Positions 17,247 to 38,185 of a stretch of DNA of 64,000 bases are shown here, one piece after another. Source of the stretch: Candidatus Iainarchaeum sp. (lineage in GTDB: Archaea > Iainarchaeota > Iainarchaeia > Iainarchaeales > UBA10219); the NCBI GenBank assembly GCA_018304425.1, contig JAGVWE010000005.1:128001-192000 (forward strand), given 5' to 3'. How positions within the stretch are numbered: position 1 is the first letter of the stretch; every line of letters starts with the position of its first letter. A program made the position numbers and the translations under genes. The notes beneath the pieces were generated by a model, which had not been told where the DNA came from, searched no databases, and saw only the letters and a list, made by a program, of their open reading frames with translations.

Positions 17247-17249
17247 GAG

Positions 17250-21873: not shown

Positions 21874-21960
21874 GACCTCTTTTATGCCCCTGAACGAATT
21901 TAATGATATCCGTTCGCCAAAAAACGCCGGAAAAGCCGGAAAAAGGCGAAAAAAAAGGAG

Positions 21961-22043
21961 TGCGGGAGGGCGGATTCGAACCGCCGTAGCCGCTAGGGCG
22001 CGGGCCCTCAACCCGGTGTCGTTGGCCGCTTGACTACTCCCGC
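21961..22043 (-). tRNA. tRNA-Leu(GAG)
   Basis: GCGGGAG/CTCCCGC acceptor stem; TT-GAG-GG loop; variable arm; GTTCGAATC; C-C mismatch at the top of the anticodon stem. Confidence 0.93.
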
Positions 22044-22103
22044 AACTGACGAGGCGTCAGTTGACACCGCATACGTCGTCCCATCTGCGATGGGACATAA
22101 ATA
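22044..22103 (-). repeat. tRNA-associated double-hairpin element family B, copy abutting the 5' end of tRNA-Leu
   Basis: TATTTAT-GTCCCATC-GCA-GATGGGAC-GACGTATGCGGTG-TC-AACTGACG-CCT-CGTCAGTT, 60 nt. Confidence 0.92.
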
Positions 22104-22132
22104 TACCAGTATCAGCCTGACCGCTTTAACTA

Positions 22133-22552
22133 TTACTTCTTGAGGTGGGCTTTTATTCGTTCGCTTACGGTTTCAAGCCCGGGCATTTCGGCTTTGAAGC
22201 GATTGTGCACGAAGTTCAAGCCGTCATCCGCCTTGCGGGGAATCACGTGGAAGTGCACGTGGAAAATGACTTGCCCTGCGACCCGGTCGTTGGACTGCAA
22301 GATGTTGAAGCCCGGGCTGTCCGTGGCCTTCATGACGGCCGCACCCAGCTTCTTGGCGGCCAGGATGGCGGCCGCAAGTTCCTCGTCCCGGGCCTCGGCC
22401 ACGGTGGGCGCGTGCCGCTTGAGCACGACCAGGCAATGGCCGTCCGCAGCCGGATAGATGTCCATGAAGGAAACCACGTGCTCGTTTTCAAAGACTTTCA
22501 CACAAGGCAACTGCCCGGCCACGACCTTGCAGAACACGCAGTCCGAATTCAT
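22133..22552 (-). CDS. HIT family nucleotide hydrolase
   Basis: DCVFCK, GHCLV, HVHFHVIPR histidine triad. Confidence 0.95.
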   Translation of the reverse strand: MNSDCVFCKVVAGQLPCVKVFENEHVVSFMDIYPAADGHCLVVLKRHAPTVAEARDEELAAAILAAKKLGAAVMKATDSPGFNILQSNDRVAGQVIFHVHFHVIPRKADDGLNFVHNRFKAEMPGLETVSERIKAHLKK

Positions 22553-23250
22553 TGAGTGCTTCCCTCTGCTGCTTTCTCGGGCTTGGAGATGTTCTCAATC
22601 TTTATCCAGAAGTTGAGGGCCTTGCCCACCATGGGATGGTTGAAGTCCACGCTCGCATGCGTGGCCGTTACCCCGACCACGGACAAAGGAAAGGGCACGC
22701 CCTCCGCGTACAACGTGTCCCCGACTTTTGGCTCGATGCCTTGCTGCTTCAATTCCGCCAAGGAACCCTCCTTGACCGGTTTGGGGTCGGGCAAGCCATA
22801 GGATTCCTCGGCAGACAAGTGAATGGATTTTTCCTCGCCCACTTTCATGCCGAGCACGGCCGCGTCAAAGCCCAGAATCATCAAGCCCATGCCGGCCACG
22901 AATTCCATGGGCCGGTTCCCGTTCTTCTCCGTGGAGTCAAACACGGTGCCATCGTCAAAGGTTCCCTTGTAAAACACCCGAATGGTGTCGCCCTTTTCGA
23001 CGACCAAGCCGTCAACGGGAGGGGTTGCCTCCGCCACCGGGCCAACGGCCGGAGCCACTGGAGTCACCGGGGCCGGCGTGGAAAGCGCTTCCGTTGCCGG
23101 TGCGGGTGCTTCCACGGACAAGGGCTTTACCGGCTCTCCGCCAGCCACGGCACTGGGCCTTCCGCTGCCTGCCTGGGTGCTTGTACCCGCCTGGGTGCAA
23201 CCCAGCACCAACAAGACGCCCATCAACGCCACGAAAACAGTGAAGTTCAA
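22549..23250 (-). CDS. FKBP/SlyD-type peptidyl-prolyl isomerase with N-terminal lipoprotein signal
   Basis: GTFDDGTVFDS, ILGFD, DFNHPMVGK; LVLGC lipobox; TTG start after GAGGAGGGG SD (start approximate). Confidence 0.88.
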   Translation of the reverse strand: MNFTVFVALMGVLLVLGCTQAGTSTQAGSGRPSAVAGGEPVKPLSVEAPAPATEALSTPAPVTPVAPAVGPVAEATPPVDGLVVEKGDTIRVFYKGTFDDGTVFDSTEKNGNRPMEFVAGMGLMILGFDAAVLGMKVGEEKSIHLSAEESYGLPDPKPVKEGSLAELKQQGIEPKVGDTLYAEGVPFPLSVVGVTATHASVDFNHPMVGKALNFWIKIENISKPEKAAEGSTQ

Positions 23251-23441
23251 GTCATTCCCCTCCTCGTCAACGCCAAACAGAAAGCGATTCAACCCATCAA
23301 TTAAACTCCTGGAAGGAATTTAAAGGTATTCCCGGAAAAACCCCCCAAAAACAGGCGACCAAAGGCTTAAATACGAGTTATTTCCTCTTATAGTGGGTTT
23401 TTGGAACCCAATCAAGCATTTTCTGAATGGAGGGGTAATGG

Positions 23442-24074
23442 ATGGGATTCAACTTCGGTGCATTGCCAGGCGTCTTGACTAAGCCCAAGCAGGCTTTCAA
23501 GGACCTTGGCCCGCAAACCATGAAAGAAGGAGCAATTCTTGCCGCCTTGTTTTCAATTGTTGCCAGCGCCATATCTGGCGTGGTCGGCGGTCAAATGAAT
23601 GTAGTGGGTTGGGTGGTTGGAGCAGTCGTGGCAGCCATCATCTTGGTAGCCACCGGCTGGCTGGCAGCCATGCTGGCCAAGATGGTATTCCACGGCAGCG
23701 GAAACACCCGCAACACCGTGGGCTACCTGGGTTATGGCTCGTTCCTGGGCGTCGTTTCAGCCATCGTTGGCGCGGTGCTCGGCATGATGGGCCTGGGCAT
23801 GATGGGCAGCGTGACCCCCGCGAATGCCATGGCCATGGCAGGCGGCGCCCTCGGCGTTGCCGCCATCGTGGGCCTGGTTTTCTTCCTGTGGTCGCTCTAC
23901 ATCAACGGCGCAGCAGTGGGAACCGCGAACGGCATTCGCCTCATTTTCGGTGCGATTTCCTTCTTTGTCGCGGCATTAATCGTGGGCATAGTTGTGGGCA
24001 CGATTCTCGTCATGGTGCTGGGCATGATTGGCCTGGGCGCCATGATGGGCGGCGCAGCCGCGATAGCCGGATGA
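23442..24074 (+). CDS. Yip1-domain membrane protein
   Basis: VLTKPKQAF N-terminal motif and about 5 TM helices. Confidence 0.75.
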   Translation: MGFNFGALPGVLTKPKQAFKDLGPQTMKEGAILAALFSIVASAISGVVGGQMNVVGWVVGAVVAAIILVATGWLAAMLAKMVFHGSGNTRNTVGYLGYGSFLGVVSAIVGAVLGMMGLGMMGSVTPANAMAMAGGALGVAAIVGLVFFLWSLYINGAAVGTANGIRLIFGAISFFVAALIVGIVVGTILVMVLGMIGLGAMMGGAAAIAG

Positions 24075-24095
24075 TCAAACCAGTCGAGGATTGGC

Positions 24096-24133
24096 GCGGC
24101 TGGGAACAGCCGCGGCCCCTGTTTTTTCTTTTT
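24096..24133 (+). terminator. Hairpin plus T-tract terminator
   Basis: GCGGCTG-GGAA-CAGCCGC followed by TTTTTTCTTTTT. Confidence 0.6.
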
Positions 24134-24199
24134 CCCCTTATGTAGTGAGCCCCGGGAAAAGCATTTTTAAACACGATGGACGCCTATCAGTAAAGTATT

Positions 24200-24288
24200 G
24201 GGAGTTAAGGAGGTAAGTCACACTGCTCAATCCCCTTCGGGGGTGGCGCCTGTAACCGGGTGCTGCAGCTCCCTGGCTTACCTCTTTT
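24200..24288 (+). ncRNA. Candidate structured small RNA
   Basis: 14-bp closing helix 24207-24220/24274-24287; C(UUCG)G hairpin; BRE/TATA at about 24154-24171; T-tract downstream. Confidence 0.5.
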
Positions 24289-24359
24289 CACTTACTCTGT
24301 TTTTCCGGCAAACCCCACCCCTTATTAATCGTTTTCGGATGGAATTGGATACCAGCGCC

Positions 24360-24538
24360 GCGGAGGTGGCAGAGTGGTCTAATGCGCCAGCCTGGAAAGG
24401 CCTTGAACCCTGTAAGGGTTTACAAAAGGCCTGCGAAAAGGGGTCATACGTTGTATGGCCCTGCCTGATAAGGCCGCAGGAAGGTTCCAGCGAGCTGGTT
24501 TCCGCAAGGAAGCACGAGTTCGAATCTCGTCCTCCGCG
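24360..24538 (+). tRNA. tRNA-Ser(GGA) with 95-nt BHB intron at 37/38 (24398-24492)
   Basis: GCGGAGG/CCTCCGC acceptor stem; CCAGC-CT-GGA-A|intron|A-GCTGG; central helix CTGG/CCAG; outer helix GGCCTT/AAGGTT; variable arm. Confidence 0.93.
24398..24461 (+). repeat. Family A element inside the tRNA-Ser intron
   Basis: AGGCCTT[14-nt insert]TTTACAAAAGGCCT-GCGAAAAG-GGGTCATAC-GTT-GTATGGCCC. Confidence 0.85.
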
Positions 24539-24608
24539 CTGCCCTTTCCTTCTTTTCCTGGATGGGGGACGCGCTTTGCCTTTTAACCTTTTCCCATCCT
24601 AACACAGT

Positions 24609-26417
24609 ATGGCAGCGAAAGACCTAATCTTCGTTCTCGATTTCGGCGGACAATATGCCCACCTCATTGCCAACCGCGTCCGCCGCCTGGGGGTTTACTC
24701 GGAGATCAAGGACCCGCTCACGCCCCTGGCCGAGCTCCGCAAAGCCAAGGGAATCATCCTCAGTGGGGGGCCGGGAAGCGTCTACGACTCCCAGGGCACG
24801 CCCTATAACCCCGAACTGTTCAAGACCCGGAAACCCGTCCTCGGCATCTGCTACGGGCACCAGGTGATGGGCCACGAGTTGGGCGGCAAGGTGGTTCCCG
24901 GCACGGTGAAAGAGTACGGCAAGGCCGCGCTCATGGTCAAGAAGAAAGAGGGCCTCTTTGCCGGCCTCTCGGACCACGAAACCGTGTGGATGAGCCATGG
25001 TGACACGGTCGCAAGGCTGCCCCCCGGCTTCGAAATCATCGGCTCGACGCCTGACTGCCCGCACGCGGCCATCGCGGACTTCAAGCGCAGGATGTTCGGC
25101 GTGCAGTTCCACGTCGAGGTAACGCATACCCCGCAAGGCGGGCGGATGCTGAAGAACTTCCTGTTCAAGGTCTGCAAGTGCAAGAAGAGCTGGAACGTGA
25201 AGGGGTTTGCCGCGCAGAAGGTGAAGGAGCTTCGAAGGGAAGTCGGGAAGAAGAACGTGTTCCTGCTTATCAGCGGCGGCGTTGACTCGGTGGTTTCGCT
25301 GGCGCTGCTGAACAAGGCCATTGGCTCCAAGCGCATCTATGCCTTGCACGTCGACCACGGCTTCATGCGCAAGGAGGAAAGCTTGGCCGTGGAGCGGGCA
25401 CTGAAGAAGCTCAAGATGTCGCCGCTGCACGTGGTGGACGCGGGCAAGGAATTCTACGAAGCCCTAAGGGGCGTGGTGGAGCCGGAGCAGAAGCGGAAGG
25501 TCATCGGAGGACTCTTCGTGAAGCTTGCCAATCAGGAGCTGCGGCGGCTGAACCTCAAGCCCGAGGACTGGCTGCTGGGCCAGGGCACGATTTACCCGGA
25601 CACCATTGAAAGCGCGGGCACGAGGCACGCCTGCCGCATCAAAACACATCACAACCGCATTGACTCGCTCAAGGAAATGATGGAAGCCGGTTTGCTGGTG
25701 GAGCCCATCAAGGAGTTGTACAAGGACGAGGTCCGGGAACTCGGCGTCCAGCTCGGCTTGCCCGGGGCAATCGTGAAACGGCATCCCTTTCCCGGGCCGG
25801 GGCTCGCCATCCGGGCCCTTTGCTCGAACGGCCAAACCGAACCCGTGCCGGAGGGCTTGGGGGAACGCGTGAACGCCTTGGCAAGCAAGTTCGGGTTGAA
25901 GGCCCAGGTGCTGCCCCTTCGAAGCGTGGGCGTGCAGGGAGACGAGCGCACCTACCGGTTGGCCGTGGCGTTGCAGGGCCAGGCAAGCTGGACCGCCTTG
26001 GAGGAATGCTCGACGCGGCTCACCAACGAGGTCAAGGAAGTCAACCGCGTGGTGTGGCTGCTTGAACCGAAGGCCATTGAATCGGTGAGGGTCAGGCCCG
26101 GCTATTTGACGCGCAGCCGGCTGGACTCGTTGCGGGAAGCCGATGACGTGGTCAACCAGGCAATGGCAAAAACCAGGTGGTATGACCGGATATGGCAGTT
26201 TCCCGTGGTGCTCGTGCCCCTCGCGGTCAACGCCGGAGAAGGCGAGTCCATCGTGTTGAGGCCGGTGTTCTCCACCGAGGCCATGACCGCGAAATTCGCC
26301 CCCCTGCCTCCCGCCTTGGTGGAGAAAATGGTGAAGGGCATCCGGAAACTCAAGGGAATAACGGCCGTGTTCTACGACGTGACGCACAAGCCGCCGGCCA
26401 CGATTTGCTGGGAGTGA
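24609..26417 (+). CDS. guaA: GMP synthase, fused glutamine amidotransferase plus ATP pyrophosphatase
   Basis: LDFGGQY, GICYGHQ, QFHVE, SGGVDS, IKTHHN, HPFPGPGL, KPPATICWE. Confidence 0.97.
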   Translation: MAAKDLIFVLDFGGQYAHLIANRVRRLGVYSEIKDPLTPLAELRKAKGIILSGGPGSVYDSQGTPYNPELFKTRKPVLGICYGHQVMGHELGGKVVPGTVKEYGKAALMVKKKEGLFAGLSDHETVWMSHGDTVARLPPGFEIIGSTPDCPHAAIADFKRRMFGVQFHVEVTHTPQGGRMLKNFLFKVCKCKKSWNVKGFAAQKVKELRREVGKKNVFLLISGGVDSVVSLALLNKAIGSKRIYALHVDHGFMRKEESLAVERALKKLKMSPLHVVDAGKEFYEALRGVVEPEQKRKVIGGLFVKLANQELRRLNLKPEDWLLGQGTIYPDTIESAGTRHACRIKTHHNRIDSLKEMMEAGLLVEPIKELYKDEVRELGVQLGLPGAIVKRHPFPGPGLAIRALCSNGQTEPVPEGLGERVNALASKFGLKAQVLPLRSVGVQGDERTYRLAVALQGQASWTALEECSTRLTNEVKEVNRVVWLLEPKAIESVRVRPGYLTRSRLDSLREADDVVNQAMAKTRWYDRIWQFPVVLVPLAVNAGEGESIVLRPVFSTEAMTAKFAPLPPALVEKMVKGIRKLKGITAVFYDVTHKPPATICWE

Positions 26418-26423
26418 AAAACG

Positions 26424-27077
26424 TCAGGGCTTCAAGGCCTTGAGTTGTTCTACCGCTTCCGCTGGGTTGGCGGACGCGAAGACGGTGGTTCCGGCCACCA
26501 AGACGTTGGCTCCTGCCTTGAGGCAGCGCAAGCCGGTTTCCAGGTCTATTCCGCCGTCGACCTCGACGTCGCAGGCAATCTTTTTCTCTTTGAGGTAGCG
26601 CGCGAGTTGCTGGATTTTGTAGACCGCGTTCACGTTAAAGGCTTGGCCGCCAAAACCTGCTTCGACGGTCATGACTTGTGCCAGGTCGACGTCGGCGAGA
26701 AAGGGGAACAGTTTTTCTATGTCCACCCGGGCGTTGGCCGAAATGCCTTTGACCAGGTCGTTGACTTGCATGAGTTTGATGGTTTGCAGGGGGTTGGCAA
26801 CCGTTTCAACGTGGAAAATGGCCCCATTCGCCCCGGCCTCGGCAAAGGGCTTGATGAACCGGTCCGGGTTTGAAACCATCAAGTGGACTTCAATGGGGAG
26901 GTCGGTCACTTTCCGGAGGGCCTTGACGACGGGAACGCCCATGGAGAGGTTCGGCACGTAGTGGCCGTCCATCACGTCCACGTGGATGAAGTCCGCGTTC
27001 TTCACCTTGCCGATTTCCTCGGCCAGGTGCGCGAAGTCCGCGTTCAAGATGCTGGGACCGACTTTGACCATGACCAT
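26424..27077 (-). CDS. rpe: Ribulose-phosphate 3-epimerase
   Basis: PSILNAD, HVDVMDGHYVPN, HLMV, GFGGQ, VDGG; start at 27077 or 27071. Confidence 0.95.
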   Translation of the reverse strand: MVMVKVGPSILNADFAHLAEEIGKVKNADFIHVDVMDGHYVPNLSMGVPVVKALRKVTDLPIEVHLMVSNPDRFIKPFAEAGANGAIFHVETVANPLQTIKLMQVNDLVKGISANARVDIEKLFPFLADVDLAQVMTVEAGFGGQAFNVNAVYKIQQLARYLKEKKIACDVEVDGGIDLETGLRCLKAGANVLVAGTTVFASANPAEAVEQLKALKP

Positions 27078-27093
27078 TACCTGCAGCAAAGCC

Positions 27094-27166
27094 TATTTAT
27101 GTCCCATCGAGCCCTTCAGGCGAGATGGGACGACGTATCGTGTGCAGCCGCCACCTTCAGGCGGCT
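27094..27166 (+). repeat. Family B element, variant copy abutting the 3' end of tRNA-Ala in opposite orientation
   Basis: TATTTAT-GTCCCATC-[15-nt loop]-GATGGGAC-GACGTATCGTGTG-C-AGCCGCC-ACCTTCA-GGCGGCT. Confidence 0.85.
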
Positions 27167-27167
27167 A

Positions 27168-27239
27168 TGGACTGGCGGGGAATCGAACCCCGAGTCTCCG
27201 CGTTGCGAACGCGGCGTCTTACCATTCGACTACCAGCCC
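27168..27239 (-). tRNA. tRNA-Ala(CGC)
   Basis: GGGCTGG/CCAGTCC acceptor stem with G3:U70; CCGCG-TT-CGC-AA-CGCGG anticodon arm. Confidence 0.96.
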
Positions 27240-27240
27240 A

Positions 27241-27315
27241 AGGGCTTTTTACAAAAGCCCTGCGAAAAGGTGCCATTCTCACGAATGGCACGGCCTTTTT
27301 ACAAAGGGTTTGCGA
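27241..27315 (+). repeat. Family A element, about 1.5 copies, abutting the 5' end of tRNA-Ala in opposite orientation
   Basis: AGGGCTTTTTACAAAAGCCCT-GCGAAAAG-GTGCCATTC-TCAC-GAATGGCAC-GGCCTTTTTACAAAGGGTTT-GCGA. Confidence 0.9.
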
Positions 27316-27432
27316 CCTTGTCTCCCCCTGGGAGACGAGGCCCCGAAGACAAAGTCTTCGGGGAAATGCCCTGTGCATTGCACAGGGCTGGCTCGGCCTT
27401 TCGGCCTCGCATCTGGGCAGCCGTTGCCCAGA
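27316..27432. repeat. Run of five closely spaced, unrelated short palindromes
   Basis: CCTTGTCTCCC-CCT-GGGAGACGAGG; CCCCGAAGAC-AAA-GTCTTCGGGG; GCCCTGTGC-ATT-GCACAGGGC; GGCC-TTTC-GGCC; TCTGGGCAG-CCG-TTGCCCAGA. Confidence 0.88.
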
Positions 27433-27487
27433 CTGCAAGATAACTGAAACCAAAGGAATTTATTAAGGGTTAACATTAATATAAAGC

Positions 27488-30400
27488 ATGCCGGATGGAG
27501 AGGGGAAGGACGCGGTAGCCGCTGGTTCGGGGGAGAAGCCCAGGCCCTTGGGGGCAGGGGAGCGGGTGGTGAAGCTCAAGGCCGCGCCGAAGACCGACCT
27601 CTTTGAAGAGGTCTTGACCGGGAAAAGCCATGAAGAGCAGTCCCTGGACGAGCTCTCGGAGGCCGAGGAAAAGAGGGCCCAGGAAGCCGAGAAAACCGTG
27701 GCCACCAAGCCGGGCAGCGGGGCTGCGCCGGTGGCGGGGGCGGAAATGCCGGCGCCTGTTCAGGCTCGCCGCGGGAGCCCTCGGAAGGCTGCCCCTAAAA
27801 TCAGGGTACGCAAGAAGGGGGTTGAAGAAGCCGGGGCCGGCGTTGCGTCGAGTGAGGGCGGGGACGACGATGACGAGGAAGACGAGCCAGGGGAACCGAA
27901 GCCGCCCCTGGACATCGAGGAAGGCGATGACTTAAGTGCCGGCGACTGGAATGACTTGTTCAAGGAGGGAGACACCCGGGAGGAAGGCATCAAGGCGGCG
28001 CAGGCCCTGCCGGAGGCAGGGGCCGGGGAAGCGGGGTCTTCGGCGGGCGAAGAAGGACCGGTGGAGGCAAAAACCCCGCAGCCCAGCAAGGAGGAAATCC
28101 GCAGGGAGTTGATTGCCAGGACCGTTGCGGCCGGCCAAGGGGATTTGACTCCCTTGAAGGAGGGGTTGCCGCTCAAGTTCTTGGAGGACCCGGAGAAGGG
28201 CAACGTGTTCATTGGCCGCAAGAAAAACATTTGGAAGAAGTACGGGTATGAGGGCGCGTTGCTGGTTGGAAAGGTAGTGGAAGAAGAGTTCAAGGAACGG
28301 CACGTCTACTTGGACTCGTTGAACCCGCACGTGGTGTTCGTTTGCGGGGCCCGGGGTTCGGGTAAATCGTATATCATGGGGGTCATGGCCGAGGAACTCG
28401 CGCGCAAGAACAAGAACGTGGGAACGGTGGTCATTGACCCGGTTGGCGTGTTTTGGAGCATGAAGTACCCGAATAAGGAGGAAAAGGAGCTCGCGTTGAT
28501 GCCGGACTGGGGCTTGCAGCCGGAGGGCCTGGACAGCTTGCGCGTGTTCATCCCAGAGGGCATCAAGAGCCAGACGCCTAAGGAGACCTATGACGCTACC
28601 TTCACCATGCAGCCCAGCCTCTTGACTTCGGATGACTGGTGCCTGACCTACGGCATTGACCGGTTCAGCCCCACGGGCCTCTTACTGGAAAAGACGCTGA
28701 AGAAAGTCGAGTTGGGGTATGAGAACCTGGATGGCAAGAAGTTCCCAGCCCGCAGGCGGTCTTATTCCCTGGATGACCTCATTGCCTGCCTGGAAACGGA
28801 TGCGGAATTGAATTCGAGGGACAAGGGGTACAAGCAGGACTCCATTCGTGCCCTGGTTTCCCGATTTGAGGCCGCCAAGAACTGGGGGATTTTCAGTGAT
28901 AGGGGCACGCCCTTGGTGGAAATCAGCAAGGAAGGCCAGTTAACGGTCATTGACACGAGTTTCCTGGACGACAATGTCACGGCCCTGGTCATCGGGATAC
29001 TGGCGAGGAGGCTGTTGGCGGCCAGGAAGCTGTCCACGCGGAAGGAGGCCGCCAAGAAGTTCCAGGAAGAGGAGGGGGTTGACGTCCTGGAAACGGATAT
29101 TCCGCCTACCTGGCTGTTCATCGACGAGGCGCACACCCTTATCCCGAGTGGCAACGTCAAGACCCCGGCCACGCATGCCCTGGTCGAGTACGTGAAGCAG
29201 GGGCGTCGACCGGGTTGTTCCCTGGTGTTTGCCACGCAGCAGCCTTCGGCCATTGACACCAAGGTGTTGAGCCAATTGGATGTGATGGTCACCCACAAGC
29301 TGGTGTTCGACGACGACATCAAGGCCATTTACAAGCGCAGCCCGACCATCGTGCCCTTTAAGTACAAGAAGCCGAGTTTCGTGAAGACCCTGCCGATTGG
29401 CACGGCGCTGGTGGGGGATCGGACGGAGGAAACGAGCCGCGCCTTCATCATGAAAATCAGGCCCCGGTTGTCCCAGCACGAGGGCCGTGAGGCGGAGACC
29501 ACGGAGCGTTCCGTGGAGTTGGGGGCCAAGCAGGTGGAGCAGTTGGCGGTGAGCATGTTGTTGCGCCGCCTGGAAGAAGAGGGCGAGACCAGCATCGAGA
29601 CCGTGGAGAAGAGCGTGCAGGTGCTTAACCAGAAGTACAAGAGCACAGCCGACGCGGAGAACGTGCTCGCGATGCTGAAGCGGCATGGACTTGTAGTGGA
29701 CGAGGAGTTCGTGCGGTTGAAGGAGTACGTGGAGAAGGAAGAGGGAACCGGGAAACCGGCGGCAGCCAAAGCCGGCGAGGAAAGCCCCGTGGAAGCGGAA
29801 GAAGAAAAGGAGGCCGAGGAAGAGGCCCAGGAAACGGCGGGGGAGGAAAAACAGGGGAAACCCGTCCCCGAAGCCGTGGAAGCGGGCTTCGGCGGGCAGA
29901 CCGAGTTGCTGGCCTTGCCTGCCCGCGTGAACCAGCAGGCGGCGCAGCGCGTGGTGGATGGCCTGCGGCACAGGAAAGTCCTGGGCTTGCTGGGCAGCGA
30001 GGAAGTCATCGAGGACCTGCAATTGAAGTATGTCACGATTTGGCGCGTCAAATACGATGTCTACAACCAGCGCAAGGAATTCATTGCCCGGGAATGCTTC
30101 GTTAATTCCATGAGCGGGGAATTCATCCACTTCTTGAAGGACCGGTTCGTGGAAAGCAAGGGCTTGAAGGAAGTGTACGAGTTGGGCGAGGACGAAATCC
30201 AGTTCGTGCGCCTGCTGGGCCGCAAGGAGATGTCCTTACAGGAAATCGTGAAGCACACGCTGTTGGACGAGAAAAAAGTCCGCCCCGTCCTCGACAAGCT
30301 GCACTTCAAACGGTTGCTGGGCAAGACCAAGAAGAACAACGAACTCCATTACTGGCTGTTGAAGGAGTTTGACTTGCCGCCCCATGAAAGGCACGACCTC

Positions 30401-30625: not shown

Positions 30626-31350
30626 GCCTTTCCCTTGGCGTCCCTGGCCTTGAGTTCGACCCTGGCCTTGTCCACTACCTGGGCTTGGGTAACGCCTTTG
30701 ACGAGCTTGTCCGCGGGCAGGAAGCCCTGGATGCTTTGCGCCGTGACCCAGGTGTGCGCCCCGACCAGGGTACCGGGAGAGGTAACGACGTTCGCACCGA
30801 GCCGGGCGTAGTCGCCGAGAATGCAGCCGAACTTGTCCGAACCCGTGGAAAGTTTCTCGCCCCTGATTTTCACCTGCACGACCTGCTGGTCAAAGCGCCG
30901 GTTGCCAAGGATGGTGCCGGAACCGATACGCGTCCCTTGTCCAAGGACGCTGTCGCCGACGAAGCAGTTGGTGCCGATTTTCGCGCCGTTGAAGAGGAGG
31001 GCGTTCTTCATCTCGACGCCCTTGCCGATGACGCAGCCGTTGCCGATGACGGTCACGGGCCGAATCCAGACGTGGGGGCGGATGGTGACGTTCTCGCCGA
31101 TGATGCACGGCCCCTCGATGACGGTGAAGGGCTCGACTACCGTGCCCTTGCCGATGACGACGTTGCCCTTGATGACGACAGTTGGGTGGACTTCGCCCTC
31201 GATGCGGGAAGCGCCAGGGTTGACCAGGGAATTCTTGCCTTCCACCATTTCCCAGGGGTGCCTGAATTTCTTCAACTCCTGGAGGGGGCAGGCGGAAAAG
31301 TCTTCGAAGTAGTAGTCGAGGCCCCCTTCCTTCAAAACTTTTGGGTTCAT
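30622..31350 (-). CDS. Hexapeptide-repeat acetyltransferase (GlmU C-terminal-like domain only)
   Basis: Left-handed beta-helix repeats, VGDSVLG, KFGCILGD; in operon with glmM and glmS. Confidence 0.85.
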   Translation of the reverse strand: MNPKVLKEGGLDYYFEDFSACPLQELKKFRHPWEMVEGKNSLVNPGASRIEGEVHPTVVIKGNVVIGKGTVVEPFTVIEGPCIIGENVTIRPHVWIRPVTVIGNGCVIGKGVEMKNALLFNGAKIGTNCFVGDSVLGQGTRIGSGTILGNRRFDQQVVQVKIRGEKLSTGSDKFGCILGDYARLGANVVTSPGTLVGAHTWVTAQSIQGFLPADKLVKGVTQAQVVDKARVELKARDAKGKA

Positions 31351-32735
31351 GCACCAATCACCTTCCGGATTTCCGATGCAATGGACTGCGCAAGCTTACT
31401 TATTTCGGTTTGGTGCTTGCCTTCAATCATGACGCGCGCCAGGTTCTCGGTGCCCGAGTAGCGGACCAGTACGCGGCCCTCGGAGCCCAGCTTGCCCTCT
31501 ACATAATGGATTCTTTCCTGCACGCCCTCCATGGCCTCGAAGGGCCGTTTTTCCCTGACCTTGAGGTTGACCAGCACCTGGGGATAGGCTTTCATGCACC
31601 GTGCCAGCCGGGAGAGGGGCTGCCGCTTTTCGCACAGGAGCCGCAGCAACTGGAGGCCCGTGATGATGCCGTCCCCGGTGGTCGAGTACTCGTGGAACAC
31701 GAGGTGCCCGGATTGCTCGCCGCCAAGCACGAAACCGCCCCTGCGCATCTCGTCAATGACGTACTTGTCTCCCACTTGCGTGACCTTGACCTGGAGGCCT
31801 GCCTGCCTCATGGCCTCGTGGAAGCCCAGGTTGGCCATGACGGTTGAGACCACGGTGTCGCGGGCCAGCTTGCCCTTGGCCTTCAAGTCCAGGGCCATGA
31901 GCGCGAGTAAATGATCGCCGTCCACCAGTTTTCCCTTTTCGTCGCAGACGATGATGCGGTCGGCGTCCCCGTCCAGGGCAATGCCCAAGTCGGCTTTCTG
32001 CCTGCGGACTTCCCGTTGCATCTGCTCCGGGTGCAGGGCACCGCAGTTGAGGTTGATGTTCAGGCCATCTGGCTCGGTGTTCAGGGAAACCACTTGGGCG
32101 CCGAGCTCGGAAAAAATGTAGGGCGCGATGTGGTAGGCCGCGCCATTGGCGCAGTCCAGGACCACTTTGAGGCCCTGCAGGCTGAGATTGTCAATCGAGG
32201 ACTTGCAGAACTCGATGTAGCGGCCCCGGGCGTCATCGATGCGGAAGGCCTTGCCGATGTCGTTGCCCGTGACCTCTCCCGAGTCAAAGCCGTTGGAGTT
32301 GACGAGCTGTTCGATCCGGTCTTCGAGGTCCTCGCCCAGCTTGTAGCCGGCGTGGTCGAACACCTTGATGCCGTTGTCGTGCGCGGGGTTGTGGGAAGCC
32401 GAAATCACGATGCCCGCGTCCGCGTTCATGGACTTGGTCAGGTGCGCGATGGCGGGCGTTGGCATCGGGCCCACCAGGAAGACGTGCGCGCCCTGGGAGA
32501 CGATGCCGGAAGTCAACGCGGTCTCAAGCATGTAGCCGGACAAGCGCGTGTCCTTGCCGATGACGATTTTGGGCTTGCCTTGCCGTTTCTTGTCCGCGCG
32601 CTGGAGGACGGTTGCAACGGCTTTGCCCACGCGCAACGCGATTTCCGGCGTCATGGGGTAGACGTTCGCTTTTCCCCGGATGCCGTCGGTGCCGAAGATT
32701 TTCCCGTTCCCGTTGTCGTTCAAGGAGGACATCAT
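31347..32735 (-). CDS. glmM: Phosphoglucosamine mutase
   Basis: FGTDGIRG, ISASHNP, DGDADR, GGEQSGH, RYSGTE. Confidence 0.97.
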   Translation of the reverse strand: MMSSLNDNGNGKIFGTDGIRGKANVYPMTPEIALRVGKAVATVLQRADKKRQGKPKIVIGKDTRLSGYMLETALTSGIVSQGAHVFLVGPMPTPAIAHLTKSMNADAGIVISASHNPAHDNGIKVFDHAGYKLGEDLEDRIEQLVNSNGFDSGEVTGNDIGKAFRIDDARGRYIEFCKSSIDNLSLQGLKVVLDCANGAAYHIAPYIFSELGAQVVSLNTEPDGLNINLNCGALHPEQMQREVRRQKADLGIALDGDADRIIVCDEKGKLVDGDHLLALMALDLKAKGKLARDTVVSTVMANLGFHEAMRQAGLQVKVTQVGDKYVIDEMRRGGFVLGGEQSGHLVFHEYSTTGDGIITGLQLLRLLCEKRQPLSRLARCMKAYPQVLVNLKVREKRPFEAMEGVQERIHYVEGKLGSEGRVLVRYSGTENLARVMIEGKHQTEISKLAQSIASEIRKVIGA

Positions 32736-34498
32736 TTCACCGTCACGCTTTTCGCGAGGTTGCGCGGCTTGTCCGGGTCATTCCCACGCAACACCGCGAG
32801 ATAGTAGGCAAGCAATTGCACGGGCACGAGTTCCGCGATAGCGGAAGCGATGCCAAGGTCGGGCACGGGGAGGTGGAGGTCGAAGACCTCGTTGTCCTGG
32901 GGTGCCAGGCCGATGATGTAAGCCCCTCGCGACTTGACCTCCATGGCGTTGCTCAGGACTTCTGCCTGGGTCTCATCGCAGGCAGCCAGGACGATGCAGG
33001 GGGTTCTCTTCTCGATGAGGGCTATGGGGCCATGCTTCAATTCCCCGCCGGCAAAGCCTTCGGCATGGATGTAGGAAACCTCCTGCAGCTTGATGGCGGA
33101 TTCGAGGGCGATGGGATAGTGCAGGCCGCGGCCGATGATGTACAAGTTTTCCTTGGCCTTTATTTTCTGCGCAAGGGCCTTGAGCCGCTTGCACTGCGCA
33201 TCATCCAGCGTCCGGGCCAGGGCGGCGCTTGCTATTTGAAGGGCTTTCCGGCCCTCGGCCAGGCGTCCGGCCGTGGCATAGGCCAGCAGGGCCAGCACGG
33301 CCAATTGGCCGGTGGCAGCCTTGGTGGAGGCCACGGCCTTCTCAGGGCCGGCGTTGATGAGCAGGTTGTAATCGGACTGGCGCATCATGGTGCTTCCGTA
33401 CACGTTGAGGAGGGAGACCACTTTCGCGCCGCGTTTCTTGGCGATGGAAAGGGCCTCGAGGGTGTCCGCCGTCTCCCCGCTTTGGGAGACGGCAATCACC
33501 AACGTGTCAGGCCCGACGAAGGGGGCGAAGTTCGGGAATTCCGAGCCCACGCAAAAGTGCGTCTGCCTGCCCGCGATCTTCGCGAACAGGTAGGTTCCCG
33601 CGAGGCACATCTTTCCGGCGGTGCCGCAGCCGACCAGCACCGTTTGCTTGGCACGGGTGATTAGTTGCGCGATTTTTTCGAGCTGCTCGTCGTCCTGCAC
33701 CAGGGCACGAGAAACGGATTCGCGCTGCTCGAGGATTTCCTTGAGCATGAAGTGCGGGAACTTTCCCTTCTCTGCCTGTTCGGGCGTCCAGGAAATCTTC
33801 TGCGGCTTCACGGGCAGCTGCTTTCCGGAGCGAAGGTCAAATAACCGGAGCGCGGAATCGATGAGGACAAGCTGCTGGTCGTCGAGGAACACGACCTGGT
33901 TGGTGTGGGGGAGGAAAGCCGGGATGTCGGAAGCGAGGAAGAATTCGTCTTTGCCGAGGCCGGCCAGGAGCGGGGAACCATTTCGGGCGCCGATGAGCTG
34001 CCCGGAATCCGCGTCGAGGACGATAAAGGAATACCGGCCTTCGAGCAGCAGGCAGGTGTGCCGCACCGCGGTGGGGAAGTCGTCGCCTTTTTTCAGGAAG
34101 TCTTCGACGAGCAGGGGGATGGTCTCGGTGTCGGTCTGGGAGTGGAACGTGTAACCCGCGGCCTGCAGGCGCTTGCGCAGGGCCTGGTAGTTTTCCACGA
34201 TGCCGTTGTGGGCCACGGCAATGCGCTTATTGTTGGACAAGTGGGGGTGGGCATTGGACTGGGTTACCCCCCCGTGGGTGGCCCATCTCGTGTGGCCCAG
34301 GGCCAGGTTTGCCTCAGGCAACGCCTTAAACCCCTTGAAATTGCCTATCTTGCCCACGTTTTTCTTTACTTGGAGGCCCGTTCCATCGAGAAAAGCGATG
34401 CCCCAGGAATCATATCCACGGTATTCGAGGGTTTTAAGGCCTTCCAAGACGATGGATACAGCCTGGTCTCCGCCTTTATAGCCAATGATTCCACACAT
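32732..34498 (-). CDS. glmS: Glutamine--fructose-6-phosphate transaminase
   Basis: MCGIIG, GHTRWATHG, SQSGETAD, ELKHGP, PRNLAKSVTV. Confidence 0.98.
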   Translation of the reverse strand: MCGIIGYKGGDQAVSIVLEGLKTLEYRGYDSWGIAFLDGTGLQVKKNVGKIGNFKGFKALPEANLALGHTRWATHGGVTQSNAHPHLSNNKRIAVAHNGIVENYQALRKRLQAAGYTFHSQTDTETIPLLVEDFLKKGDDFPTAVRHTCLLLEGRYSFIVLDADSGQLIGARNGSPLLAGLGKDEFFLASDIPAFLPHTNQVVFLDDQQLVLIDSALRLFDLRSGKQLPVKPQKISWTPEQAEKGKFPHFMLKEILEQRESVSRALVQDDEQLEKIAQLITRAKQTVLVGCGTAGKMCLAGTYLFAKIAGRQTHFCVGSEFPNFAPFVGPDTLVIAVSQSGETADTLEALSIAKKRGAKVVSLLNVYGSTMMRQSDYNLLINAGPEKAVASTKAATGQLAVLALLAYATAGRLAEGRKALQIASAALARTLDDAQCKRLKALAQKIKAKENLYIIGRGLHYPIALESAIKLQEVSYIHAEGFAGGELKHGPIALIEKRTPCIVLAACDETQAEVLSNAMEVKSRGAYIIGLAPQDNEVFDLHLPVPDLGIASAIAELVPVQLLAYYLAVLRGNDPDKPRNLAKSVTVK

Positions 34499-34688
34499 GG
34501 GGGTTGCACCGCAAAATAAGAAGCAATGGAACTATTCTGGGGCATTAGAGTTTAAATACCCCGTTGAAAGCCCATTACAGCCAGTATAAGCCTGGGCATA
34601 ACGGAAACCCCAAGGCTTTTAAAGACTAACTACACTAATACTAACTAACCCATAATAGTAGTATAACAAAACTTGTAATGGTGAATGC

Positions 34689-35645
34689 GTGGCGGATTTC
34701 CTGTTGTTGGATGGCGAGAAGCGCGTGCCCACCAAGCGCGTGGACTCCGTGGAAGCCTTGAAGCCCCTGCTGAACGAGTCGGCCTGGCAAATCGTGAAAC
34801 TCCTGCGCAGGCAGGAATCCTATCCCGCGGAAATCGCGAAAAAACTGGGCCTCAACGAGCAAACCGTTTACTACTATGTCAAGCAGCTGAAAGCCAGCGG
34901 CTTGATTGAGGTGTCACGCACCGAGGAAAAGCAGGGCGCGCTCGCGAAATTCTTCCGCTGCAACTATGACTCGTTTTCCCTCGTGGCCTCGGCCGAGAAC
35001 GCGAGAAAAGCGGAGTTCACGTCCTCGCCTGGCACGGCCAAGCAACTCGAACCCGCGCTCAAGGAATTCCTGGAGCCCTTCATCACCGAGGGCGGGCGGT
35101 TCGACGCCAAAATCGTGGTCGGCAGCCCTGACCCGCATGGGGAGTTGAAGGCGCGGGCGCGCGACGGCCACCTGGCCGTTGAACTCGCGGCCTTCCTGGG
35201 CTCGCTCTGCAACGAAATAAACTATCCCCTCATCTACTTGGACACGCAGATTCCCTCGGTCGAGAAAGAGAACTCGAACCTGATCCTCCTCGGCGGCCCC
35301 ATCACGAACCGGTTGGCCGAGGAACTCAACGAGCATTTGAGCATCCGGTTTGCCTCCAGCGGCGGCCAGTGGCTCGTGAAATCCAAGGCCAGCGACAAGG
35401 AGTATGCCGAGGACGCGACCGGCTTCATCGAGAAAATCAGGCACCCCTCCTATCCCAACCGCGCCATCCTCGTCATCGCCGGCAAACGCAATGCGGGCAC
35501 GCGGGCCGCCATCATCGGGTTAATCAAGCAAACCCATGAAATGGCGAAACCCAACAAATTCGACGAGCGCCTGCACGCCCGCATAGTGGAGGGCCTGGAC
35601 CTGGATGGAGACGGCATCATCGACGACGTCGAAATAAAGGAGTAG
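34689..35645 (+). CDS. ArsR-like wHTH regulator fused to an S-layer/flavodoxin-like C-terminal domain
   Basis: SYPAEIAKKLGLNEQTVYYYVKQL HTH; NLILLGGPITN motif; DLDGDGIIDD terminus. Confidence 0.75.
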   Translation: MADFLLLDGEKRVPTKRVDSVEALKPLLNESAWQIVKLLRRQESYPAEIAKKLGLNEQTVYYYVKQLKASGLIEVSRTEEKQGALAKFFRCNYDSFSLVASAENARKAEFTSSPGTAKQLEPALKEFLEPFITEGGRFDAKIVVGSPDPHGELKARARDGHLAVELAAFLGSLCNEINYPLIYLDTQIPSVEKENSNLILLGGPITNRLAEELNEHLSIRFASSGGQWLVKSKASDKEYAEDATGFIEKIRHPSYPNRAILVIAGKRNAGTRAAIIGLIKQTHEMAKPNKFDERLHARIVEGLDLDGDGIIDDVEIKE

Positions 35646-35671
35646 AAACGACCCAGGCGCCTTCAGCTGGC

Positions 35672-36409
35672 TTAGTCCAGCAGGTTCTTCCAGCTCTTGC
35701 CCTTCCGCTTCTTGAGGTTGACGGCTCCGACCAAGGCATCGAACATGTCCTGGTTGGCGAGCGCGGCGCGCTCGATGGGGGCCTTGAAGCCCAAGCCAAT
35801 TGCCAGTCCCACGCCCAAGCCGACCGCGATGACGATGGTGATCATGGCGAGGCGCAGGATGTCCAACAAAATCGTGGTCTCGGCTGCCGGCAGGATGATG
35901 GGCAAGGCAATGATGATGCCCACGTAAATGACGAATATCTCCACGAAGCTCGCGACCTGGTCCTTGAAGGCGAAGATGCCGCGCCTCCGGATCTTCTCGG
36001 AAATGAAGTCCCCGAGGAACAGGGTGCCGACCAGCACGGCAATGCCCTCGATGAGGTTCGGCACGTAGTTCATGATGGAGGCCACGATGTTGCTGAAGTA
36101 AGCCAATCCAACCAGGTCGGTGGCCGTGCCGAAGAACAGCAACGCGATGTAGAGTTCAACGAGGATCGTGATTATTTCCGTGAGCCTGAAGCCCAGCAGG
36201 GCGTCTCCGAGGCCGTGCCCGGCAATGGTTTCCTCGAGCTTGATGGCCCGCGAAATCCGGCGGATGAGGATGGTCGTGTACTTGCCCACGATTTTGCTGA
36301 CCAGGAAAAAAGCGACTAAAACGATTAAGGCAATGATGGAGTTCTGCGCGTACCCAATGACCTGCGAAGTCATGGCCCCAAAATCCAAGTTAGTCAACCC
36401 AACAGCCAT
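35672..36409 (-). CDS. MscS-associated TM-helix repeat (CmpX-like) membrane protein
   Basis: YVPNLIEGIAVL TM-helix motif; GLAIGLG near the C-terminus. Confidence 0.7.
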   Translation of the reverse strand: MAVGLTNLDFGAMTSQVIGYAQNSIIALIVLVAFFLVSKIVGKYTTILIRRISRAIKLEETIAGHGLGDALLGFRLTEIITILVELYIALLFFGTATDLVGLAYFSNIVASIMNYVPNLIEGIAVLVGTLFLGDFISEKIRRRGIFAFKDQVASFVEIFVIYVGIIIALPIILPAAETTILLDILRLAMITIVIAVGLGVGLAIGLGFKAPIERAALANQDMFDALVGAVNLKKRKGKSWKNLLD

Positions 36410-36480
36410 AGTAAACCCATCTAATCAAGTCATTTAATAGGATTTAACCGCTTAAAAACATATCGTCCGGGTGTTTTGGC

Positions 36481-36753
36481 GTGGAATGGAGTGAATTCGG
36501 GATGCGGCCCTGCAAGAACCGCCTGGCATTCGACGTGGTGCCCAGGCAAAGGCTTTCCCTGGACTGGCAGACAACCTGCCAGCGGCTGCGCGCCAATGGC
36601 CTGGAAGTGGAAGCCGAAACCCCCCGGTTGGTTCTGGTGCGGGTGCAAGGCAAACCGGTTTGCCTCTACCCGGACGGCCGGTTCCAGGTGCGGCAGGCCC
36701 GGGATGCCGTGGAAGCGAAAGCCGTCGCCGTCGCGGTTATCGGCTGCCTTTAA
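36481..36753 (+). CDS. Small hypothetical protein (possible TBP-like fold)
   Basis: 90 aa ORF filling the gap after a TTAAAAA box; VCLYPDGRFQV pattern. Confidence 0.6.
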   Translation: MEWSEFGMRPCKNRLAFDVVPRQRLSLDWQTTCQRLRANGLEVEAETPRLVLVRVQGKPVCLYPDGRFQVRQARDAVEAKAVAVAVIGCL

Positions 36754-36792
36754 GGCAATGGAATTAAAAAGCGCTGCCACCCCAGCCATGGT

Positions 36793-37911
36793 ATGGCTGG
36801 CCTGAAACTGGGAAGCGTTTTCGGCATTGGCGTCGAACTGCACCCCACCTTCGTGTGGCTGTTTGCAGCGCTCGCCGTGTTCCTGCTGGTCTTTGACGCC
36901 GCGAGTTTCGTGCCCAGCATGGTCATGCTGGTCTTCCTCTTCGTCAGCGTGTTCGTCCACGAGTTGTTCCACTCCCTGGTCGCCTTGTCCAAGCACGTGC
37001 GCGTGGAAAAAATCGTGTTGCTGCCGATTGGCGGCATCTCCATGGCCGAGGAAATGCCTGAAAAGCCGTTGGACGAGTTCCTGGTGGCCATCGCCGGGCC
37101 GTTGTTCAATTTCCTGGTCGTGTTCCTCATCCTCTTCCTGGTAGCAGTGGTGCCCGGCCTGCCGTGGCCGCACGCGTTGTTCTCCGGCCAAGCCGATTAC
37201 GCCCTGGTCGAGGAAGCCATGCTGGCCTATCCCCTCTTCGCCTTGCTGTGGGTGAACCTGATGCTGGGCGCGTTCAATCTCTTCGTGCCCGCGCTGCCCA
37301 TGGACGGGGGAAGGGTGTTGCGCGCGCTCCTCTCCATGGTCATGGGCCACGCCAAGGCCACCGCGCTTGCCTCCAAGATTAGCCTGGGCTTTGCTTTCCT
37401 GATGGCGTTGCTGGGCTTGCTGGGCGGCAGCCTCATGCTGGTCGTCATCGCGGTGTTCCTCTACTTTGGCGCCACCTATGAACGCGACCTCACGGCCATG
37501 AAGGAAACCATTCGCGGCGCGGACTACGGGAAAATCGTGTCGAAAAAGTTTTCCGCCGTGGACGAGGGCATGCGGTTCGAGGACGCGCTCAAGGCCATGG
37601 CCGAAAAAAACACGGGCCTGCTCCTCGTGAAAGGCGGCACGGGCATTGGCTACCTCTCGACCGATGACTTGCTGGCCGTGGAGAAATCCAAGCGCCTGGG
37701 CGCCTTGACCGTTGGCCAACTGGCAAAGCGGCTGCCGGTCTTCGAAGCCGGAACCCCGGCCGAGAAGCTCATGGGCTTCTTCGCCTCCAAGGGCGTGCCC
37801 GTGGTCGGCATTTCCAGGGGCAAAAAGCTGTCCGGCCTCCTCTTCCAAGCCGATTTGGACGCCCTCTACCAATTGACAAAGTTGAAAAAGAAGTTCGATT
37901 TACAGTATTGA
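36793..37911 (+). CDS. Site-2 protease (M50) with CBS domains
   Basis: HELFH, IAGP, FNL.PALPMDGGR, C-terminal CBS pair. Confidence 0.93.
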   Translation: MAGLKLGSVFGIGVELHPTFVWLFAALAVFLLVFDAASFVPSMVMLVFLFVSVFVHELFHSLVALSKHVRVEKIVLLPIGGISMAEEMPEKPLDEFLVAIAGPLFNFLVVFLILFLVAVVPGLPWPHALFSGQADYALVEEAMLAYPLFALLWVNLMLGAFNLFVPALPMDGGRVLRALLSMVMGHAKATALASKISLGFAFLMALLGLLGGSLMLVVIAVFLYFGATYERDLTAMKETIRGADYGKIVSKKFSAVDEGMRFEDALKAMAEKNTGLLLVKGGTGIGYLSTDDLLAVEKSKRLGALTVGQLAKRLPVFEAGTPAEKLMGFFASKGVPVVGISRGKKLSGLLFQADLDALYQLTKLKKKFDLQY

Positions 37912-37983
37912 CGGCGACGGCCGGTGAAAGCTGGCCTTTTCCCCGGAGCAAGAGCGAAGGGGCAGGAAGCGTGGTTGGCGGCA

Positions 37984-38043
37984 TATTTATGTCCCGCCGC
38001 AGGCGGGACGACGTATGCGGTGCCGGCTGACGCCTCGTCAGCC
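37984..38043 (+). repeat. Family B element, copy abutting the 5' end of tRNA-Ser(CGA)
   Basis: TATTTAT-GTCCCGCC-GCA-GGCGGGAC-GACGTATGCGGTG-CC-GGCTGACG-CCT-CGTCAGCC, 60 nt. Confidence 0.92.
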
Positions 38044-38128
38044 GCGGAGATGGCGGAATCTGGTAAACGCACTCGCCTCGAGAGCGAGAGCCCGCAAGGG
38101 CGCGTGGGTTCAAATCCCACTCTCCGCG
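38044..38128 (+). tRNA. tRNA-Ser(CGA)
   Basis: GCGGAGA/TCTCCGC acceptor stem; CTCGC-CT-CGA-GA-GCGAG; long variable arm GCCC-GCAA-GGGC. Confidence 0.96.
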
Positions 38129-38185
38129 CTTTTTCCTGCCTTTGGCTGGAAACAATTAAATAGTTTGAGAGGCATAGGTAAATAC

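Follow-up and report, generated by a model that had tools for sequence, protein, structure and literature searches.

A repeated hairpin cassette at tRNA gene borders in Candidatus Iainarchaeum, a candidate reused promoter with a structured leader

REP/BIME elements with their RAYT transposases and the PATEs of IS200/IS605 are short multi-copy extragenic palindromes, often located at gene 3' ends. The hairpin promoters of the phage N4 virion RNA polymerase and the single-strand promoters of conjugative plasmids are used by polymerases of single-subunit or bacterial type, the DNA being extruded or single-stranded, and we know of no N4-like hairpin promoter for the archaeal factors TBP/TFB. In the Thermoproteales, tRNA introns and the leaders of split tRNAs are related in sequence. 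Reused or 'mobile' prokaryotic promoters are summarized for bacteria in PMC3575422 as near-identical segments before unrelated genes, within and between related genomes; for an archaeal system, the summary of PMC8707807 gives ~60-bp intergenic repeats with AT-rich promoter motifs in halovirus HF2. Here, we describe a cassette in a 64,000-nucleotide stretch (the window) of Candidatus Iainarchaeum sp. (assembly GCA_018304425.1, contig JAGVWE010000005.1, positions 128,001 to 192,000). It is composed of an AT-rich box (TATTTAT), a palindrome (H1), a short spacer and a second hairpin (H2). With modest confidence, we favour the view that the cassette is a reused archaeal promoter joined to a structured 5'-pseudoknot leader and copied to many loci, as judged from the comparison of its copies.

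The source genome, 1.48 Mb in 7 contigs, belongs to a small groundwater archaeon of the DPANN order Iainarchaeales. The 60 nt located 5' of tRNA-Leu(GAG) (22044-22103, minus strand) align without gaps to the 60 nt located 5' of tRNA-Ser(CGA) (37984-38043, plus strand), with nine differences, at positions 13, 14, 20, 21, 40, 42, 43, 59 and 60. An earlier analysis of the window (the sequence-only reading) had claimed that eight of these nine form four compensatory swaps. This is confirmed, and the A-T/G-C pair swaps are located at 13-21 and 14-20 in H1 and at 42-60 and 43-59 in H2. The last stem had also been said to reach the tRNA border; H2 indeed stops one base before tRNA +1, its last base being tRNA position -1 in both leaders. 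The coordinates and sequences given earlier for three copies were all borne out by re-reading. The two leaders are organized as follows.

22097-22103, minus strand: TATTTAT box of copy 1, putative TATA box
22078-22096, minus strand: H1 of copy 1, a perfect palindrome of 19 nt (stem of 8 bp, loop GCA)
22065-22077, minus strand: GACGTATGCGGTG of copy 1, containing the pseudoknot's 5' strand and the predicted start (A of TATG)
22044-22064, minus strand: H2 of copy 1, the leader hairpin, ending at tRNA position -1
21960-22043, minus strand: tRNA-Leu(GAG)
37984-37990, plus strand: TATTTAT box of copy 2
37991-38009, plus strand: H1 of copy 2, inner pairs swapped relative to copy 1
38010-38022, plus strand: GACGTATGCGGTG of copy 2
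38023-38043, plus strand: H2 of copy 2, ending at tRNA position -1
38044-38129, plus strand: tRNA-Ser(CGA)

The third copy keeps TATTTAT, the outer H1 stem and GACGTAT, and 1 nt separates its end from the discriminator base of tRNA-Ala(CGC), a gene of the opposite strand. Its H1 is 31 nt long, extended via tandem G-A, and its H2 is of the CAGCCGCC...GGCGGCT type. A further copy, the 16th of the genome, is a variant in which ATATTACC replaces TATTTAT, followed by an extended H1, CGTAT and an H2 of the same subtype (B2, described below).

27094-27166, plus strand: copy 3 (subtype B2), aimed at the 3' end of tRNA-Ala(CGC)
27168-27240, minus strand: tRNA-Ala(CGC), its 3' end 1 nt from copy 3, with two elements of another repeat family (A) on its 5' side
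61534-61612, plus strand: 16th copy, variant, adjoining the stop-codon end of a convergent open reading frame (ORF)

Motif searches and a covariance model built on the 5' half of the cassette (R1) identified 16 copies in the genome, 15 with TATTTAT and one with ATATTACC. The genome-wide covariance-model search, proposed by the sequence-only reading, describes a closed family: 14 copies score 48-67 bits, one copy reaches only 26 bits because of a long insert, and the variant scores 21.6 bits. The three remaining rows are only partial matches (23.2, 17 and 16 bits), and there are therefore no decayed copies. A search for the 3' motif (GGGACGACGTAT, at most one mismatch) gave 13 matches, 12 of them inside cassettes, each of these with TATTTAT (12/12), and the 13th unrelated. 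The similarity of the copies exceeds chance by far. Most copies being unlinked to tRNAs would have spoken against the family as first described; H2 lies 0-2 nt from a tRNA end in 8 of the 16. The same holds for a lack of covariation in a wider alignment, and covariation is supported in the alignments of both H1 and the pseudoknot.

The copies can be divided into two subtypes. Subtype B1 (five copies) carries GCGGTG and then a CTGACG...CGTCAG hairpin at its 3' end. Four B1 copies adjoin the 5' ends of tRNA-Leu(GAG), Leu(CAG), Ser(CGA) and Ser(UGA), all of them long-arm tRNAs, and H2 ends at position -1 in 4/4. The fifth is found 39 nt before the ATG of an ORF starting with Rpb2 domain 4, between split rpoB halves. 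The ~190-nt gap between these halves (G000:C3:130731-130926, locus L022) consists of a module of a third repeat family (C) and then the B1 cassette. Subtype B2 (11 copies) carries the hairpin CAGCCGSC...SCGGCT. Four B2 copies are directed at tRNA 3' ends, namely those of tRNA-Ala(CGC), Leu(UAG), Gln(UUG) and, within the 16S-23S spacer, Ala(UGC). A fifth is separated by a family-A element from the tRNA-Gly(UCC) that it faces, and another is located 52 nt upstream of tRNA-Arg(GCG), aimed away from this tRNA. Three have a stop codon of the same strand 1-14 nt before their start, one is flanked by divergent genes, and the variant copy stands against the end of the convergent ORF. The B2 spacer after GACGTA (for instance at window 27132-27145) alternates purines and pyrimidines, as in TAGCGCGC or CGTGTG, and could in principle form left-handed DNA.

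The strict motif was found in nine stretches among 185,579 species (one genome each), all from Candidatus Iainarchaeum or related uncultured DPANN archaea. The strict pattern is present in 7 of 196 Iainarchaeales genomes, including the source genome, and the reversed control pattern in none. R1 matches (E <=0.01) were obtained in 21 of 151 Iainarchaeales genomes, from seven families besides that of the source genome, with at most nine copies per genome; 55 such matches constitute the relatives' alignment. The cassette family is specific to the order Iainarchaeales, with ~70 members in hand. Non-orthologous genes carry copies in different genomes. The subtypes are genome-specific, which points to cassette copying or gene conversion within genomes.

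Some loci are shared by descent. A cassette 5' of tRNA-Val, in the tRNA-Gly/tRNA-Val spacer, occupies the same locus in four genomes from two genera of one family. There, the leader and H2 are conserved, and the H1 sequence is wholly different in each genus, yet it still forms a short hairpin whose loop is purine-N-A. Two species have orthologous antisense copies at the tRNA-Gln 3' end, in which H1 differs by compensatory changes and the leader is nearly identical. In comparisons with Rfam, at the gathering score and, for eight loci, at E <=1, only tRNA, rRNA and RNase P matched, and nothing matched the elements; likewise, no known self-cleaving ribozyme model matched the cassettes in these eight loci at E <=1. 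At the level of abstracts, no published account of such elements in Iainarchaeota, Diapherotrites or DPANN was found, and PMC3293823, from its abstract, concerns a mechanism different from the cassette.

H1 is a perfect 19-nt palindrome with a G-N-A loop, showing covariation at all stem positions. In the first 20 sequences (alignments A1 and A2, made of 14 of the 16 own copies and six relatives' copies), all of the 160 cells are paired and 26 changes are double-sided (0/500 shuffles); the search pattern behind A1 fixed the outer stem letters, and its free evidence comes from the inner pairs and pair 2 only. Of the 352 stem cells in 44 distinct H1 sequences, 341 are Watson-Crick, the others being seven G-T, three A-C and one other mismatch. 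The loop reads G-N-A or R-N-A on the cassette's own strand in most rows. Because H1 is rewritten as a hairpin at the tRNA-Val locus and its changes at tRNA-Gln are compensatory, the palindrome is, on this comparative evidence, under long-term selection for pairing. Wobble pairs were also considered as an indicator of the folding strand, and gave no usable asymmetry (seven G-T versus three A-C in H1, three versus six in H2).

H1 is followed by CGACGTAT or a close variant, whose A is the 25th base after the box. In the leader of ~30 nt, the four bases that follow CGTA can pair with the H2 loop, and both change together by subfamily. This pairing was analysed in an alignment (A4) of 68 references, which comprise the 55 relatives' matches and 13 own copies; copies C1:204636 and C5:174404 were left out (long inserts). 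Removal of three duplicates and of 12 rows with irregularities (a long insert, an H2 of family-A type, truncation or a weak match) gave 53 sequences. The spacer-to-loop helix is 90.1% paired, with 14, 11 and 15 double-sided changes at the three inner pairs, which are GC/UA/AU/CG, CG/GC/UA and GC/CG/UA/AU. The whole-structure covariation score amounts to 0.681, versus 0.161 for shuffles (0/500 reach it) and <=0.223 for slid partners. As in an H-type pseudoknot, both helices have two-sided changes at every pair, 84.2% of the cells being paired. The predicted pseudoknot, whether of RNA or of DNA, is thus supported by covariation. In the two window leaders, H2 has three extra pairs that compete with the spacer-loop pairing.

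The position of the leader is that of a pre-tRNA leader, as H2 ends at -1 and an archaeal RNase P RNA is present in the genome (window 3063-3277). This RNase P RNA match covers 215 nt against a 288-position model and has an ordinary promoter, with no cassette. In relatives, H2 is followed by tRNA +1 in three cases, and by a ribosome-binding site and an ATG within ~20 nt for the genes of S4e, L30, PyrI and a histidine phosphatase, the sense ORFs of which start 28-35 nt past the end of the model. Two other possible relations to the tRNA were discarded. Pairing of the leader with the tRNA 3' strand or trailer is not general in the source genome (by eye), and leader and trailer are complementary only where cassettes flank both sides of one tRNA, a relative's tRNA-Met. 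A mirror tRNA on the cassette strand was not found either, the Rfam tRNAs being on the opposite strand only.

The box behaves as a promoter element elsewhere in the genome. Outside the cassettes, TATTTAT occurs at 95 sites, and in 25 of the 95 its 3' end lies 15-30 nt before a same-strand ORF start (>=100 aa). At these 25 ordinary sites the box is typically 22-26 nt before the ATG, as in leaderless archaeal genes. Counting from the end of TATTTAT in the cassette, the 25th base is the A of CGTATG, and the T-A step falls on the 24th/25th base in copies with a 19-nt H1; the spacing from TATTTAT to CGTATG equals that from TATTTAT to ATG in the ordinary leaderless promoters of this genome. The spacing from box to CGTAT is fixed because H1 measures 19 nt in about 50 of the 55 relatives' rows (by eye). 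Among the 55 relatives' copies, nearly all changes in the AT box exchange A and T, and the box is preceded by A in 52/52 rows with a letter there; in the source genome, the preceding base is C in 7 of the 11 B2 copies. The 12 nt before the predicted start contain 33% A+T in nine short-H1 cassettes versus 70% in 12 ordinary TATTTAT promoters.

A sense gene is located downstream of 5/16 copies here and of copies before at least three tRNAs and four ORFs in relatives. For tRNA-Ser(CGA), no other AT-rich box is found within 90 nt upstream, and some relatives' copies come after T5-T8 runs that end the previous gene. Directly after H2 of copy C1:204636 stands a second TATTTATG (G000:C1:204742), followed at 25 nt by the ATG that opens a 276-aa ORF, and this may represent either a target-like duplication or the next gene's own TATA box. 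The sequence-only reading had offered two explanations, a mobile element or a structured pre-tRNA leader or promoter module. The latter is the better supported of the two, now extended by the use of the box as a TATA box, the start spacing, the covariation of the leader, and the tRNA +1 or ribosome-binding site and ATG after H2.

In the reading that we favour, TATTTAT, usually preceded by A, would bind TBP/TFB, and transcription would start ~25 nt downstream, at the A of CGTA(T/G). The first four bases of the transcript may then pair with the loop of the 6-9 bp H2, resulting in a compact pseudoknot at the very 5' extremity. At tRNA genes, the end of H2 at -1 would coincide with the RNase P cut, by which the leader is presumably removed; elsewhere, H2 would end 8-20 nt before a ribosome-binding site and ATG. 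The 19-nt H1 would occupy the space from box to start in place of the ordinary AT-rich stretch. The cassette would have spread by copying or recombination rather than by a transposase.

Several observations weigh against this promoter and leader. A hairpin between TATA box and start is superfluous for a plain promoter, yet H1 is the part that covaries most strongly, and the strand-specific G-N-A loops, which are borne out in most rows, are left unexplained as well. H1 is 28-70 nt long in 6/16 copies, including three of B1, and the distance from box to CGTAT grows by 9-50 nt accordingly. For three B2 copies here, the next gene has a separate TATA box of its own after the cassette, and two relatives keep the tRNA-Val architecture but have a poor AT box. 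Upstream terminators do not single out an own promoter, as T5+ runs precede 13/55 copies versus 10/55 for A5+ runs. G-U is rare in H2 and the pseudoknot (three G-U versus six A-C of 371 cells), which is unusual for a helix acting only as RNA; this near-absence suggests a constraint on both strands. At tRNA 3' ends, antisense copies (four here, 9/55 in relatives) have no obvious promoter use, and five copies are antisense at the 5' side of tRNA introns. For these 13 copies facing tRNA 3' ends and five antisense intron copies there is no sense gene downstream. The role of H1, and the intact copies at tRNA 3' ends and in introns, are thus left unexplained by a promoter.

The orientation of the copies follows a strict rule. 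In every copy that touches a tRNA (8/16 here, 18/55 in relatives), H2 is the tRNA-proximal end. The copies at tRNA 5' ends are in sense orientation (four here, three in relatives), and one copy is in sense orientation at the 3' side of a tRNA intron. The tRNA-Met of one relative has copies at its 5' end, in its intron and at its 3' end, and an inverted pair of cassettes fills the tRNA-Cys intron of a relative, as well as the tRNA-Gly/tRNA-Val spacer. The conserved primary motifs keep the frame of the cassette in all orientations, which argues that they may work at the DNA level or in the transcript of the cassette itself, rather than in that of the tRNA. At locus L051 (G134), a cassette in sense orientation after one tRNA 3' end is followed, ~25 nt on, by the apparent 3' half of another tRNA, which may be split or intron-bearing; the stretch contains N.

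Two further repeat families occupy similar positions. Family A is a two-hairpin repeat of ~20 copies genome-wide, for instance at window 17181-17260 (plus strand) and 27245-27320 (minus strand), made of a GTSCCAT...ATGGSAC hairpin, then GTTTTCGC and then a CCTTTTGTAAAAAGG hairpin. It adjoins tRNA 5' ends in sense and 3' ends in antisense orientation, sometimes in tandem. Reverse family-A modules, starting 1 nt after the 5' splice site, fill 50-98-nt tRNA introns in tRNA-Ser(GGA) (window 24360-24539), tRNA-Gly(UCC), Asp, Leu(CAA) and Pro(UGG); the T5-T6 runs in these introns would be expected to act as terminators in archaea. The leaders of family C are made of GGCCTACC, an H1 extended via tandem G-A, AMGTCCACAGRTG and a B1-like H2, with no AT box; they are located at G000:C1:36837, C1:112897, C6:128899 and in the C5:65326 region, and adjoin tRNA-Arg(CCU), Cys(GCA) and Pro(CGG). 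A hairpin pair, CCACCAAAAGC...GCTTTTGATGG plus GTCCACTTCGTGGAC, is nested in H1 of one copy of the present cassette (G000:C5:174404-174491) and in family-A H2s (the tRNA-Arg(CCG) trailer and the tRNA-Val(UAC) and Gly(GCC) leaders), as if hairpins inserted into hairpin loops.

The orientation rule would be explained if the whole cassette, including TATTTAT and H1, is transcribed within longer precursors and acts as an RNA border module capping tRNA and exon ends, a possibility that we hold to be unlikely. Going outward from the tRNA, it would present H2 with its pseudoknot, H1, and an AU-rich single strand cut by an endonuclease, and its hairpins would insulate the folding of the tRNA and hold off exonucleases until processing is completed by RNase P, RNase Z or the splicing endonuclease. 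It explains why H2 is tRNA-proximal at 5' ends, 3' ends and both splice sites, and the inverted pairs in the tRNA-Cys intron and the tRNA-Gly/tRNA-Val spacer. One copy, in the 16S-tRNA-Ala-23S spacer, is certainly transcribed, in reverse, and cassettes are found inside operons, upstream of S4e and L30 and in the rpoB gap. Families A and C share the two-hairpin layout without an AT box, and stems restricted to Watson-Crick pairs suit folding when read from either strand. However, A-TATTTAT, the G-N-A loop and CGACGTAT are fixed in the frame of the cassette, reversed copies being equally conserved despite a different RNA, and TATTTAT is the genome's TATA box, at TATA-like spacing. In addition, tRNA-Ser(CGA) would be left with no upstream promoter candidate, some copies come after T-run terminators, and copy 27094 has a divergent gene 5 nt upstream and could therefore be transcribed forward only by its own promoter. 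In another reading, H1 would work as a DNA hairpin. The GC-rich palindrome would replace the AT-rich melting region, and opening of this hairpin-dependent TBP/TFB promoter might be gated or helped by a hairpin or cruciform, the non-template strand folding into a very stable C(GNA)G mini-hairpin; copies at 3' ends and in introns would then make short antisense-tRNA transcripts, routinely accompanying the expression of tRNA genes in these archaea. We consider this quite unlikely.

The other explanation offered by the sequence-only reading, a non-autonomous element moved as single-stranded DNA by an HUH enzyme (IS200/IS605 or REP-type) and landing at TTTAT, received little support and appears decidedly unlikely. 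Here, H1 and H2 would be the recognised hairpins, TATTTAT the target or cleavage motif, and promoter activity incidental. The multiple copies, their patchy distribution across the order, the genome-specific subtypes and the non-orthologous sites would fit, as would the strand-specific G-N-A loop, the almost purely Watson-Crick stems and the short, guide-like pairing of spacer and hairpin loop; this pairing, though, involves the loop, whereas in IS608 it lies beside the hairpin foot. The only Y1 transposase gene of the genome belongs to an IS200-type element whose end hairpins are unlike H1 and H2. This element interrupts a tyrosine-integrase-like ORF that follows tRNA-Thr(CGU) (G000:C1:1-1524, L001). 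Y1 genes are present here and in 3/5 cassette-rich relatives, but a 94%-complete relative with three copies has no Y1 match. A 33-nt upstream flank is repeated directly after the cassette of one relative (L042, G045) and is absent as a repeat from the same-genus L040 (G027), and copy C1:204636 is directly followed by the second TATTTATG; no consistent target duplication flanks the 16 copies, and no decayed or truncated copies are found. Neither are the copies classical miniature inverted-repeat transposable elements, as the AT box and H2 ends are unrelated in all 16, without regular duplication. Among the 15 contig joints listed from four metagenome DNA runs (window 21500-38500), no joint skips a cassette and leaves an empty site, which is uninformative either way; the joints at 24386-24513 are tRNA-Ser genes of other organisms with other introns. 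TATTTAT is present in every copy except the variant, but it is the TATA box of the host too, and the descent of the tRNA-Val and tRNA-Gln loci with compensatory change speaks for long-term selection. A link to TnpB was considered and dropped: tnpB lies 670 nt from copy C6:134693, but with a 120-aa ORF in between and unmatched ends. Finally, H1 might be the operator of a dimeric DNA-binding regulator over tRNA, ribosomal protein and RNA polymerase genes. Archaeal repressors are commonly located between TATA box and start, where H1 forms a perfect dyad, and some of the downstream genes belong to the expression machinery. Yet every stem position varies among the 44 distinct H1 sequences while staying complementary, and the whole stem is rewritten at one orthologous locus. 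An operator is highly improbable because a sequence-reading protein would keep its half-sites constant.

If the promoter with its pseudoknot leader is correct, a DPANN order of ultra-small archaea would use a copy-and-paste cassette to express tRNA, ribosomal protein and RNA polymerase genes, with a palindrome between TATA box and start and a pseudoknot at the 5' end, an arrangement for which no counterpart in archaeal transcription was found described in abstracts. The cassette would provide a clean test case for the spread of promoters within genomes, and its strict facing of tRNA ends and splice sites would tie promoter reuse to the origin of archaeal tRNA introns, leaders and trailers. It represents a new structured RNA/DNA family with strong covariation, which can be added to RNA family libraries. 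Even as a processing spacer or a transposon relic, it would still mark the lineage and help to annotate these genomes.

In comparison with the known systems, the cassette shares with the tRNA introns and leaders of the Thermoproteales that one repeat family is found in tRNA introns, leaders and trailers; that lineage is a different one, and the cassettes here carry promoter-like motifs, with no split tRNAs shown. The halovirus HF2 repeats are viral, and their summary mentions neither a hairpin or pseudoknot nor a link to tRNA. With REP/BIME and PATE elements, the cassette has compensatory stem changes and inverted pairs in common. It differs in having no matching transposase ends, and in its TATA-like box, initiator, pseudoknot and strict tRNA orientation. 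The N4 and plasmid promoters resemble H1 in their short GC-rich stem, 3-nt loop and strand-specific loop bases. As in archaeal promoters with TATA box, B recognition element (BRE) and initiator, the cassette has an AT box of the type used in this genome, an A-rich base upstream and a pyrimidine-purine step ~25 nt downstream, whereas its 12 nt before the start are GC-richer and form half of a perfect covarying palindrome. To the scheme of the mobile promoters, the cassette adds a folded leader, a base-exact abutment to tRNAs, and copies in antisense orientation and in introns.

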